Part shown: piece after piece, positions 31,097 to 34,432 of the stretch
Layout of the letters: every line of letters starts with the position of its first letter
Numbering within the stretch: position 1 is the stretch's first letter
Assembly: GCA_050287085.1 (NCBI GenBank)
Contig: JBNKBE010000006.1
Span: forward strand, 170,381-234,380
Length of the DNA: 64,000 nucleotides
From: Polyangiaceae bacterium
Lineage (GTDB): Bacteria; Myxococcota_A; Polyangia; Polyangiales; Polyangiaceae
Direction: 5' to 3'
Made by a program: the position numbers and the translations under genes
Notes under the pieces: model-generated
Seen by the model: only the letters and a program-made list of their open reading frames with translations
What the model was told of the DNA's origin: nothing
Databases searched by the model: none

Positions 31097-32209
31097 CTAA
31101 AGGTTGCGCGCAGCGGCGAGTACTTCCGCGGTGTGCCCGGCGACACGCACGCCGCGCCAAACAGCCCGAACCTTACCCGACGCGTCCACCAAGAAGGTGG
31201 AACGGACGATGCCCATGTACTCGCGCCCGTAGTTCTTCTTCAATTGCCACACCCCTAGAGCCTTTGCCAGTGCTTGCTCCGTGTCGGCCAAGAGCGAATA
31301 CCCAAGAGAGTACTTCTCGTCGAACTTTCCATGCGTGGCCGTTGTGCCCGGGCTGATCCCCAAAACACGCACCCCCAGGGCCTCAAACTCGGCACCTTCA
31401 TCGCGAAAGCCGCAGGCCTCCTTAGTGCAGCCAGGGGTATCCGCCTTGGGAAAGAAGAACAATACGTAGGCCGCTCCGAGAAGCGACGCCCCGGTGACTG
31501 CAACATTCCCCTGATCGAGCAGCTCGAACTCTGGCATGGCGTCCCCTGCGGAGATGGCGTCCCCTGCGGAGATCGCATCGCTCGCCGTCTCGCTTTGAGA
31601 CGCGGCAGCTGCCTTGCCACGCTGGCTGCGCTTCGCCTCCCCCGTGTCGCGGGCCTGGACGGAAGGTGATGCCGCCGCGTCAACGGCTTCTTCTGCCAAC
31701 GCGCTGGGGCGCCCCACTCTCTTTGCAGTGGCCTTCTTCGCAGTCGCCTTCTTCGCAGTCGCCTTCTTCGCAGTCGCCTTCTTCGCAGTGGCCTTCTTCG
31801 CAGTCGCCTTCTTCGCAGTGGCCTTCTTCGCAGTGGCCTTCTTCGCAGTCGCCTTCTTCGCAGTCGCCTTCTTCGCAGTCGCCTTCTTCGCAGTCGCCTT
31901 CTTCGCAGTCGCCTTCTTCGCAGTGGCCTTCTTCGCAGTGGCCTTCGCAGTCTTCTGCTTAGAGCCGCCGTTCTTGGTCGCTGCCTTCTTGGTGCGGCTC
32001 TTCTTGGTGGCCGCCTTCTTGGTACTGCTCTTCTCGCTCACCTTCTTCTTGGTGGCTGCTTTCTTCGAACTGCTCTTCTTGCTCGCTGTCTTCTTGGACC
32101 CTCGCTTCGGAACGTCCGTCGCGGATGCCGCCGACTCGCTGTCGGCCCCACTACCCTCTGAAGTCTTTGAACCGGAACTCGCTCCGGAACTCACTCGTTT
32201 TGACGCCAT
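31097..32209 (-). CDS. bcp: BCP/PrxQ peroxiredoxin with N-terminal histone-H1-like Lys/Ala repeat region
   Basis: C-terminal [24 protein letters not shown] and [11 protein letters not shown]-terminal KKATA repeats are in frame. Confidence 0.92.
31731..31940 (-). repeat. 15-bp coding tandem repeat, 14 copies (KKATA periodicity)
   Basis: gccttcttcgcagt(c/g) repeated over 210 bp on the + strand, varying only at one synonymous position. Confidence 0.97.
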
Positions 32210-32516
32210 GTAGTTCTCCACGGAAGGGCGGCGAAGTCTGAGATCGCCGCGAGCTATCACCGTATCGCGCTCCTCGTTCCAAGAGAAGTGCCGCCGTGCG
32301 CTCGACGTGCGAAAACGCGGACGGGGCGGGCTGTACAGCGCCGGACGCTATCCTCTCGACACTCGTGGCAGCGGGACCAGGCGCCCTCGCCCGCGCGGCC
32401 ACATGCCCAAACCGAGGGAGCGCGAGAATGTTTTCAGGATCCGTACTTGGTCGCCCCCGGTTGCTGCGCTATCGTGCCCAACACGCAGCGCCATCGCGCG
32501 CAGCCTAGGACATACG

Positions 32517-32978
32517 ATGCTAGATCTTCCCGACAACGGACTCTATCGAACCACCACCGCCTTGCCCGGCAACGAGACCGCTTTCCCCAAAGGAGTCCTC
32601 GTGTACGTCGGGGAGAAGGGGGGCAACAAGTTCATCGTGCGTCCCGGTCAGAACCGGCACAATCGTTGGTATTGGGGAGAGCCGACCACGCCTCTTCGCT
32701 CTCCAACCTGGGCCCGCACCCTACTGGCCTTGCGCGGCGAGGGCTTCTACACGTTGCCTGAGGCGCTCGAGTTCGAAGGGGGCGGTCGTTGGCTGAAGAA
32801 CGCCATCGTGCAACTCGGGTACAACGAGAAGGGCGAGCCCATCGTATTCGTGGCCCAGCGGCGAGAGGGCGAAAAGTCAAACGTACTGGCTTTCAGCGAT
32901 CGCGGGCGCCGCATCAGCGACGAGCTGCTGGAACAATTGGTCTGGGCGCCGATTCTGCCCGTCGCCGACGACGCTTGA
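32517..32978 (+). CDS. Hypothetical protein with internal two-fold repeat
   Basis: LPDNGLYRTTTAL...GVLVYVG versus LRGEGFYTLPEAL...NAIVQLG. AGGA precedes ATG 32517. Confidence 0.75.
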   Translation: MLDLPDNGLYRTTTALPGNETAFPKGVLVYVGEKGGNKFIVRPGQNRHNRWYWGEPTTPLRSPTWARTLLALRGEGFYTLPEALEFEGGGRWLKNAIVQLGYNEKGEPIVFVAQRREGEKSNVLAFSDRGRRISDELLEQLVWAPILPVADDA

Positions 32979-33808
32979 ACGGTCCGGACCTCAGCTCCTA
33001 TTTTGGAGCCAAAGTAGAAGGCCTCGCGCCGCCCCTGGCGCAGATATGGTTTTCACTTGGCGTGGACCATGGCGCAGAGCGCTTTCTGGAACGCGCGTCG
33101 CGGAATCGTCACGGCTGGCTCAAGAATGGGCTGCACGCATGGCTCCGGCACTTCTGGTCTGACTTCGACGTCAACGGCGCGCTGAACATGTACCCGTTGT
33201 ACATGTTGTCTACGGCTGCCTGGCGCAAACTGCTCATCCAGGCGGGTGCTACCGTGCCGTATGCCACCCTGCTCGACGTTGGCGCGGGGAATGGCGACCT
33301 GACGTCGCAGCTCCGGCCCCTGTGCAGGGACCTTTGCGCGACCGAGGCATCCCGGATGATGCGCTGGCGCCTGAACAGACGGGGATATCCCGCTCGTTCT
33401 ACGTTGCCCGACTCGACCTTCGACGGCGTCGTCTGTCTCAACGTCCTGGACCGAACGGCACGCCCCCTGACCCTGCTTGGCGAGCTGGAACGCCGACTGC
33501 GCCCTGGGGGCGTGTTGGTCCTTTCCGTCCCACTTCCCGTGGAGCCCTTCTACTACGACGGCCCCAACGTCCTTGCGCCCGAAGAAGCACTCCCGGCAGG
33601 CAGCTCGAACTTCGAAGCGGCCGCCAATGCCTTATTTCCCGTTCTCTCGCAGCACCTCCCCGGCTGCCGCCCGCACGTGTTCACCAAAGCCCCCTATTTG
33701 TCCGGCGGAGACAACGGCCGACCGTACTACGTGCTGGAAAGTGGGGTGTGGGTTTGGCGTCGGCTCCCGTCGGAGGGCGGTGCTCCGGGCCCAACGCCCA
33801 GCCTTTGA
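32975..33808 (+). CDS. METTL9/DREV-family class I SAM-dependent methyltransferase
   Basis: DVNGAL, LLDVGAGNG, ATEAS..M.W.L, CLNVLDR...PLTLL, LP..PF and FT..PYLSGGD...YYVL, collinear with eukaryotic METTL9 as recalled. TTG start overlaps the upstream stop. Confidence 0.85.
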   Translation: MNGPDLSSYFGAKVEGLAPPLAQIWFSLGVDHGAERFLERASRNRHGWLKNGLHAWLRHFWSDFDVNGALNMYPLYMLSTAAWRKLLIQAGATVPYATLLDVGAGNGDLTSQLRPLCRDLCATEASRMMRWRLNRRGYPARSTLPDSTFDGVVCLNVLDRTARPLTLLGELERRLRPGGVLVLSVPLPVEPFYYDGPNVLAPEEALPAGSSNFEAAANALFPVLSQHLPGCRPHVFTKAPYLSGGDNGRPYYVLESGVWVWRRLPSEGGAPGPTPSL

Positions 33809-33987: not shown

Positions 33988-34071
33988 GCCGAAGTGGCGG
34001 AATTGGCAGACGCAGCGGATTCAAAATCCGCCGCCTTCACGGGCGTATCGGTTCGAGTCCGATCTTCGGTA
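33988..34071 (+). tRNA. tRNA-Leu (anticodon CAA)
   Basis: Acceptor GCCGAAG/CTTCGGT, D-arm GCGGAATTGGCAGACGC, anticodon arm GCGGA-TTCAAAA-TCCGC, long variable arm, T-loop TTCGAGT. CCA is not encoded. Confidence 0.96.
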
Positions 34072-34432
34072 CAAAGTGGTAACCCATCGAGGGCTAGCCG
34101 CTGGGCGCGCGGTGAGCCGCCCAGCGGGGGCCTGAGGGTTTGGGGTCGGACGCTCCTGAGAAGCACCAGTGGGAAGGTCGCTAGCGCACTGGCTACAGCT
34201 CACCGCCTCAGGAGCGGGTGCTGGCATGGCTTACCTGCGCTCACCTGTACCGACCTTGGGCTGGACGCCAATGTCCTCCGCGCAACCAGCCGCCGAGACG
34301 ACAACTTGTTGACAGGCGAGAATAGCCAGGATTTCTTGTGCCAGAGTGTGACTTGGCCGTTTGCGCTGGTATATTGCCCATTAAAACCGCTCCTTTCCAG
34401 CGCCGCCACGGCGGATCGCATCGCCCGAACGT

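Follow-up and report, generated by a model that had tools for sequence, protein, structure and literature searches.

A bacterial METTL9 relative in the Polyangiales with conserved catalytic residues and a remodelled substrate groove, a candidate bacterial protein histidine methyltransferase

A 64,000-nucleotide stretch of a Polyangiaceae genome (the window) encodes, at positions 32975..33808 of the forward strand, a METTL9/DREV-family methyltransferase that is full length and constitutes an intact bacterial relative of METTL9, which its literature, in the sections available, treats as a eukaryotic enzyme. Based on alignments, a predicted structure and gene trees, this bacterial METTL9 appears to combine conserved chemistry with a remodelled substrate groove and an old, order-restricted distribution, and it is a good candidate for an enzyme that methylates histidines of bacterial proteins. 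That these bacterial proteins belong to the DREV family is already known, since precomputed Pfam annotation tags them as such. A search of the open literature, with subscription journals mostly outside its reach, returned no description of a bacterial METTL9/DREV member, and no bacterial homologue was found in the accessible parts of PMC12269839 and PMC7873184, although the ConSurf homologue set of the former could include bacterial rows.

Family assignment and fold

The gene starts with a TTG codon that overlaps the TGA stop of the open reading frame just upstream, and its product has 277 amino acids (translated from 32975-33805). An earlier note, made from the sequence alone, had described a full-length METTL9 homologue on the strength of several motifs, all of which were found in the translation. 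The Pfam profile DREV (PF05219) matches the product almost from end to end (profile positions 8-262 of 265, E = 1.4e-34, 119.9 bits against a cut-off of 26), whereas the best generic methyltransferase model reaches 44.2 bits and covers the core only, which bears out the assignment. A phmmer search of PDB sequences returned human METTL9 (8GZE, E = 1.3e-25, query residues 15-262) and Ostreococcus METTL9 (8BVI, 1.8e-19), followed by a match at 2.4e-4; with a profile built from 94 homologues the E values of the human and Ostreococcus proteins were about 1e-72 and that of the next match 1.7e-9. In the ESM Atlas, DREV clusters rank first, and two of them are mostly bacterial with Myxococcota the commonest group.

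An AlphaFold model of the protein (pLDDT 95.5) gave the same picture. Foldseek placed METTL9 entries at TM 0.83-0.85 and other folds at no more than 0.53 among the matches listed. VIA-align superposed the model on human METTL9 with Z 33.4 (rmsd 2.1 Å over 258 residues) and on Ostreococcus tauri METTL9 (8BVI) with Z 30.1 (rmsd 2.2 Å over 263 residues), the next fold scoring Z 15.7. The human protein (8GZE, 7Y9C, 7YF2-4, 9VPQ) is a protein-L-histidine N-pros-methyltransferase, and the likeness takes in the whole DREV domain at 28% identity. The METTL9-specific N-terminal helices around the seven-beta-strand core are predicted to be present: model residues 2-264 align with residues 49-318 of 7Y9C at TM 0.85. 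Since the alignment covers human residues 49-318, the bacterial protein has no counterpart of the human signal-peptide region (residues 1-18; PMC10308197). The gene is present in one copy in the source genome (96.8% complete), and its GC3 of 0.75 compares with a genome mean of 0.72 +/- 0.04. Copies in the same GTDB family share 69-84% identity with proteins that bear the name Polyangiaceae, in agreement with the myxobacterial host supposed in the earlier note.

Active site and substrate groove

Human residue numbers were taken from the alignment with 8GZE by adding 52 to the chain number, an offset under which E174, N118, R123 and M126 fall on the expected residues. The alpha4-beta1 substrate loop (residues 62-76; 33158..33202, +), delimited by this alignment and by family counts, keeps N118 but carries D63, F64, M72, Y73 and L75 in place of R114, T115, R123, G124 and M126. 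SAM-binding motif I (residues 99-107; 33269..33295, +) keeps D151 and G153 and has N106 at D156. Further downstream, E124 (33344..33346, +) aligns with human E174, a SAM ribose-binding residue whose mutation to Ala inactivates human METTL9 (PMC12269839). The post-II motif (residues 156-160; 33440..33454, +) supplies N156, D159 and R160, the equivalents of N210, D213 and R214, which form the target-histidine pocket of the human enzyme, where D213, by holding N3, directs methylation to N1 (PMC10073072, PMC10308197). The C-terminal peptide-binding loop, placed by alignment (residues 240-254; 33692..33736, +), has Y241, S243, D246, Y252 and L254 for human Y295, C297, D300, Y306 and L308; the human loop provides the His-2 cleft and an i-3 backbone contact, with D300 and Y306/L308 binding the peptide (PMC10073072).

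Grouped by role, five of the six SAM-binding residues (D151, G153, D156, E174, N210, Y295) are identical, the exception being D156, which is Asn, and four of the five residues of the target-histidine pocket (N210, D213, R214, V241, Y295), the exception being V241, which is Pro. In the His(-2) cleft Y295, D300, Y306 and L308 are identical and M126 and C297 are replaced by Leu and Ser. The groove residues R123, G124 and E249 of the canonical HxH-specific METTL9 are absent (M72, Y73 and Y194). Overall, N118, D151, G153, T173, E174, L209, N210, D213, R214, Y295, G299, D300, Y306 and L308 are kept relative to human METTL9, and the changes are R114D, T115F, R123M, G124Y, M126L, D156N, L175A, V241P, H245E, Y247F, E249Y and C297S. 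As judged from the alignment, the target-histidine pocket and most of the His(-2) cleft are intact, and those contacts that involve the flanking backbone have not been preserved. In human METTL9, R123A and E249A abolish peptide binding and M126A nearly does so, T115A, V241G and C297A reduce it by a factor of 6-10, and SAH is no longer bound by the D156A mutant (PMC10308197). The proposal of histidine methylation made in the earlier note therefore stands in part: the catalytic residues for N-pi chemistry are kept, but the canonical HxH groove is not, with R123 and E249 replaced and D156 changed to Asn.

The same residues were counted in 57 of the 134 other positive genomes of the order, picked for long contigs and family spread, and in 88 eukaryote-side rows, which were defined by their position in the tree and few of which carry names. 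D151, G153, D213, R214, Y295, G299 and L308 are present in all 57 bacterial copies, E174 in 56, N210 in 54, D300 in 48 and Y306 in 43. Position 124 is never Gly in the bacterial copies (38 Tyr, 18 His, one Phe) compared with 83 Gly among the 88 eukaryote-side rows. Position 123 is mostly Thr (25) or Met (19) against Arg in 67/88, position 249 mostly Tyr (31) or His (12) against Glu in 82/88, position 241 Pro in 47/57 against Val in 84/88, and position 115 Phe (38) or Tyr (19) against Thr in 84/88. Asp is found at position 114 in 52 of the bacterial copies, and at position 156 in 13 of them as opposed to 69 eukaryote-side rows. The loss of R123, G124, V241 and E249 is, on these counts, common to the bacterial branch. 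All 38 copies of the source family (f1) keep Glu or Asp at 174 together with N210, D213, R214, Y295, D300, Y306 and L308. Families f2 and f7 have often lost D300 or Y306; all ten f2 copies are without Y306 and six of these also without D300.

Met-Tyr at positions 123-124 is not unique to bacteria, because it is found in two intron-split eukaryotic METTL9 genes (L135 and L122). These two belong with P0179, P0186 and P0204 to a eukaryotic lineage with Met-Tyr or Ala-Tyr at these positions, whose branch is nearest the bacterial side. Like the bacterial protein, Ostreococcus METTL9 has Ser in place of C297 and a residue other than Asp in place of D156, but it keeps R123, G124 and M126, which the bacterial protein has replaced; it makes 1-methylhistidine with narrower specificity (PMC12269839). 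The METTL9 of Euglena mutabilis (EukProt EP00669 P009229, cluster P0178) and the eukaryote-derived row P0198 have P125 and H127 in common with the bacteria, as well as an aromatic side chain in place of E249, and, unlike the bacterial protein, keep D156 and V241. Differences in specificity are also reported among eukaryotes: of nine orthologues, seven were active on at least one of the two human test proteins, with differing specificities, the worm enzyme methylated ZIP7 fragments, and the Dictyostelium purpureum orthologue was inactive on the two test proteins (PMC12269839).

The next-best folds are the C-terminal methyltransferase of OvoA, OvoM and OvsM (8KHQ, 9BXH-9BXN; Z 15.7 and 15.5), with 183-188 residues aligned from model residue 55 or 65 onward. 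Their substrates are free 5-thio- or 5-selenohistidine, and the OvoA methyltransferase domain and OvsM methylate the N-pi of a histidine derivative (PMC11030361). Bacterial METTL9 has the N-x-x-D-R motif in common with these enzymes and scores 30.1 bits with the OvoA-type model TIGR04345, under the cut-off of 170. Since OvoA-type enzymes share this motif and rank as the next fold, N-pi chemistry is supported whether the acceptor is a peptide or a small molecule, and the conserved catalytic residues make histidine N-pi chemistry a well-supported prediction.

Distribution, inheritance and direction of transfer

Of the 401 genomes sampled from the order, 135 gave a METTL9 match (E <= 1e-10; the count includes the source genome and one unpublished genome, G457, on which no claim depends by itself), corresponding to 121 of 353 high-quality genomes, 45 of 124 genera and eight of 19 families. 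All carriers are single copy except one in which the gene is split over two contigs, and no internal stops occur among the matches listed. Presence varies by clade: the gene was found in 11 of the 12 other genomes of the source genus, in 11/11 and 7/7 genomes of two further genera (g17 and g8) and in 19/22 genomes of family f7, and in none of the genomes of two genera (g5, 0/19; g15, 0/23) and one family (f6, 0/20). The f7 copies show 55-65% identity to one protein that carries the name Sandaracinaceae. The taxon names derive from such identities, the named relatives overall being Polyangiaceae and Sandaracinaceae. No METTL9 was found in samples of 221 genomes of the class and 336 genomes of the phylum from outside the order, in which 6-8 candidates per genome were scored. 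A single-protein scan of named genomes returned six loci, all generic methyltransferase cores, viral contigs gave four weak core-only matches, and plasmids gave no METTL9 match at 1e-8. Longer or fused forms numbered two among 5445 candidates, both eukaryotic; that no bacterial fusion was seen is weak evidence. A metagenome contig of GC 0.48 carries a divergent bacterial-type METTL9 (L125:2-712) beside two prokaryote-like reading frames without a Pfam match, one of which, by eye, we take to resemble a transposase; this copy may represent a carrier outside the order.

Partial or multi-piece matches and rows more than 60% identical to a kept one were left out of the trees (184/285), after which subsets were picked by hand. 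In an 80-row gene tree the family labels need six changes, the minimum possible, compared with 18.1 in shuffles. An RpoB tree of 29 genomes places the root of the order between f1+f74 and the rest, with METTL9 carriers on both sides. Among the rpoB matches, those of G395, G519 and G416 came in two pieces in different frames and those of G001 and G009 in two pieces in one frame with an insertion. As the gene tree follows the host families and spans the RpoB root, these trees indicate an old gene, vertically inherited within the order, and, as carriers lie on both sides of that root, a gene that would date to the ancestor of the order or near it. The non-carriers are best read as losses; on this reading the last common ancestor of the order would already have had the gene, which would later have disappeared clade by clade.

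A 76-row LG+C20 tree, in which the bootstrap had not fully settled, gathers 32 bacterial-type rows and two eukaryote-derived rows on one side (100/95). The latter two, P0178 (the cluster with the Euglena mutabilis protein) and P0198, join a Polyangiaceae subclade (100/96), but AU tests do not secure their nesting inside rather than beside the bacterial clade: a topology with all bacteria together and both rows outside is not rejected (p = 0.42 with 38 rows and 0.25 with 48 rows). When three substrate-loop segments were removed, support was lower, with the other eukaryotes together at 92/90 and the euglenid-Polyangiaceae group deprived of its star, although the bacteria formed one side in none of 200 bootstrap trees. 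A transfer from Polyangiaceae to euglenids is possible. No DNA context for the Euglena METTL9 was found in metagenome contigs, so the Euglena transcriptome may be contaminated. A second transfer into a eukaryote is possibly represented by a bacterial-type METTL9 that extends over two reading frames in gene-sparse, eukaryote-like DNA of GC 0.47 (L141:3557-4845), encodes a hydrophobic N-terminus and forms a long branch inside the bacterial clade.

The remaining eukaryotes attach beside families f2+f8 (f2+f8 100/93, remaining bacteria together 96/89), which lie deep inside the order on the RpoB tree, and this position would favour a bacterial origin. We nevertheless give a slightly better than even chance to an acquisition by the ancestor of the order from an early eukaryote. 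METTL9 is reported from all five eukaryotic supergroups (PMC12269839), it was found in one bacterial order only within the class and phylum genome samples, and the AU tests reject neither a placement of the eukaryotes outside the non-f1 families (p-AU 0.225) nor the above topology in which the bacteria form one group and the two euglenid-type rows lie outside it; it is the best trees, with the eukaryotes beside f2+f8, that speak against it. The opposite direction has a real but less than even chance. Within the order, METTL9 would have evolved from an N-pi methyltransferase of the OvoA type and reached the eukaryotic lineage ahead of the last eukaryotic common ancestor; further transfers, e.g., to euglenids, would have followed. 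This scenario agrees with the attachment of eukaryotes inside the family structure of the order in two trees, and transfers from myxobacteria to eukaryotes have been inferred for steroid genes (PMC8237579) and plasmalogen genes (PMC13012113). An OvoA outgroup also roots the METTL9 tree among the bacteria (SH-aLRT 86 and 82), but its branch is about seven changes per site long and saturated, which makes this root unreliable, and it was not trusted. Moreover, the AU tests leave the alternative unrejected, the alignment has 265 columns and the genome survey stayed within the phylum. The alternative raised in the earlier note, horizontal transfer or shared ancestry with eukaryotes, stands, with an order-wide vertical clade in place of a one-off event, and the phylogeny with AU tests is compatible with either direction.

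Genomic neighbourhood and proposed function

The gene just upstream of METTL9 (32517..32978, +; start at 32403 or 32517) encodes a hypothetical protein without a match in Pfam or NCBIfam that falls into Myxococcota-specific clusters in the Atlas. Its stop overlaps the METTL9 start and the two are probably co-transcribed here, but it was found in the fetched flank at only ten of the 57 other loci and is no constant partner. Between 32200 and 34500 no sigma-70-like promoter was found upstream and no terminator-like site, and two promoter-like sites lie downstream. Divergent from the gene pair, at 31097-32260 (-), an AhpC/TSA peroxiredoxin is fused to long Lys/Ala-rich histone-H1-like repeats (Pfam HC2, 62 bits); a tRNA-Leu(CAA) gene (33988-34072, +) lies 180 bases downstream and is followed by GAF, response-regulator, DciA and FHA genes. 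At the 57 related loci, of about 11-13 kb each, the recurrent neighbours are Fe/Mn superoxide dismutase (29), DciA (18), GMC oxidoreductase (16), PhoX (13) and sdhA (11). They are nearly all confined to f1, f2 having other neighbours, and are best read as a sign that the chromosomal position is conserved and not as members of a pathway. At these loci METTL9 has no recurrent His-rich neighbour.

Based on its fold, family and active-site residues, the protein is fairly likely to be an N-pi methyltransferase that acts on histidine in a peptide or protein and whose specificity differs from that of the human enzyme. It would be a cytoplasmic, SAM-dependent enzyme that methylates the N-pi (N1) of a histidine within a peptide or protein. 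By analogy with human structures, SAM would be bound through D101, G103, E124, N156 and Y241, and the target histidine would sit among N156, D159, R160 and Y241, with D159 holding N3 and thereby leaving N1 to attack the methyl group. The cleft formed by L75, Y241, S243, Y252 and L254 would accommodate a second histidine, or a comparable ring, located two residues upstream, and D63, F64, Y73, P74, P186 and Y194 would reshape the groove towards a narrower or different flanking sequence. The likeliest targets would be His-rich metal-handling proteins, e.g., the His-rich N-terminal tail of a cation-efflux transporter (source genome, C3:102628-103557). In crude gene calls the HxH-richest host proteins include a cation-efflux transporter, alongside others that, by eye, are presumably a HypB-like protein (C16:80301), a SlyD-like protein (C2:96535) and a His-rich membrane protein. 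The host proteome as a whole shows no HxH enrichment by the same crude calls (302 motifs versus 284-323 in five shuffles). A long membrane-protein reading frame of uncertain start (C25:697-3804, +) carries short tandem His repeats and two HxH motifs in its N-terminal part.

It is rather unlikely, although credible, that the N-pi acceptor is instead a small molecule, i.e., a histidine derivative, a His dipeptide or a short natural-product peptide, with Y73, Y194 and P186 closing the groove. The nearest folds other than METTL9 are the small-molecule N-pi methyltransferases OvoA, OvsM and OvoM, the replacement of R123, G124, V241 and E249 is clade-wide, and the superoxide dismutase and GMC oxidoreductase neighbours (29 and 16 of the 57 loci) could hint at redox chemistry. 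However, the peptide-binding residues D300, Y306 and L308 are kept in all 38 source-family copies, and no gene for a small-molecule pathway consistently accompanies METTL9. A tblastn search of the source genome (96.8% complete) did not detect superoxide dismutase, the GMC pair or PhoX, which were rejected as obligate partners; relatives, by contrast, carry an Fe/Mn superoxide dismutase beside METTL9. The ovothiol form of the proposal is further weakened by the absence of ovoA from the source genome, in which the best match to the ovoA partner model (TIGR04344) is EgtB at 94.9 bits against a cut-off of 400, by ergothioneine genes that have their own EgtD, and by OvoA-type methyltransferase domains in only three of the 401 genomes of the order, as searched with the C-terminal domain. 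With no ovoA and a separate EgtB-EgtD pair, a role in ovothiol or ergothioneine synthesis was rejected for the source genome. The egtB and egtD genes lie side by side at C3:294499-296687. The three OvoA-type C-terminal domains (L200-L202, in genomes G496, G449 and G597) are part of long reading frames, and all three genomes also carry METTL9.

A switch of acceptor away from histidine, to a different residue, an N-terminus or a nucleic acid, is improbable. The clade-wide remodelling of the groove would allow it, and DNA methylation by the worm orthologue has been reported, as mentioned in PMC12269839, but the authors of that study failed to reproduce it, D213, R214 and Y295 are invariant in the 57 copies, and no restriction or RNA-modification gene recurs among the annotated neighbour clusters. 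Finally, a decaying relic of a recent eukaryotic transfer or a eukaryotic contaminant of the bin, which the TTG start, the patchy distribution (135/401) and the long branch of the source protein (0.76-1.05) might suggest, is very improbable and already largely refuted by the lack of internal stops in the matches listed, the host-like GC3, the position among bacterial genes on one contig with DciA adjoining in 18 of the 57 related loci, the minimum number of family changes in the gene tree (six versus 18.1 shuffled) and the presence of carriers on both sides of the RpoB root.

If the putative peptide or protein histidine methyltransferase is active, protein 1-methylhistidine would occur in bacteria, and a small enzyme with no signal peptide and a naturally different groove would be useful for learning how HxH specificity is set. 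Since the gene is old in one bacterial order and nearly universal in eukaryotes, METTL9 also offers a testable marker for genetic exchange of myxobacteria with early eukaryotes. The combined proposition, that the bacterial protein is an active protein-histidine N-pi methyltransferase and that METTL9 arose in the order from an ovothiol-type ancestor and passed to the ancestor of eukaryotes and later, separately, to euglenids, is a doubtful one as a whole. If both the bacterial activity and that origin were true, METTL9 would be one more enzyme, after those for sterols and plasmalogens, that early eukaryotes owe to myxobacteria.
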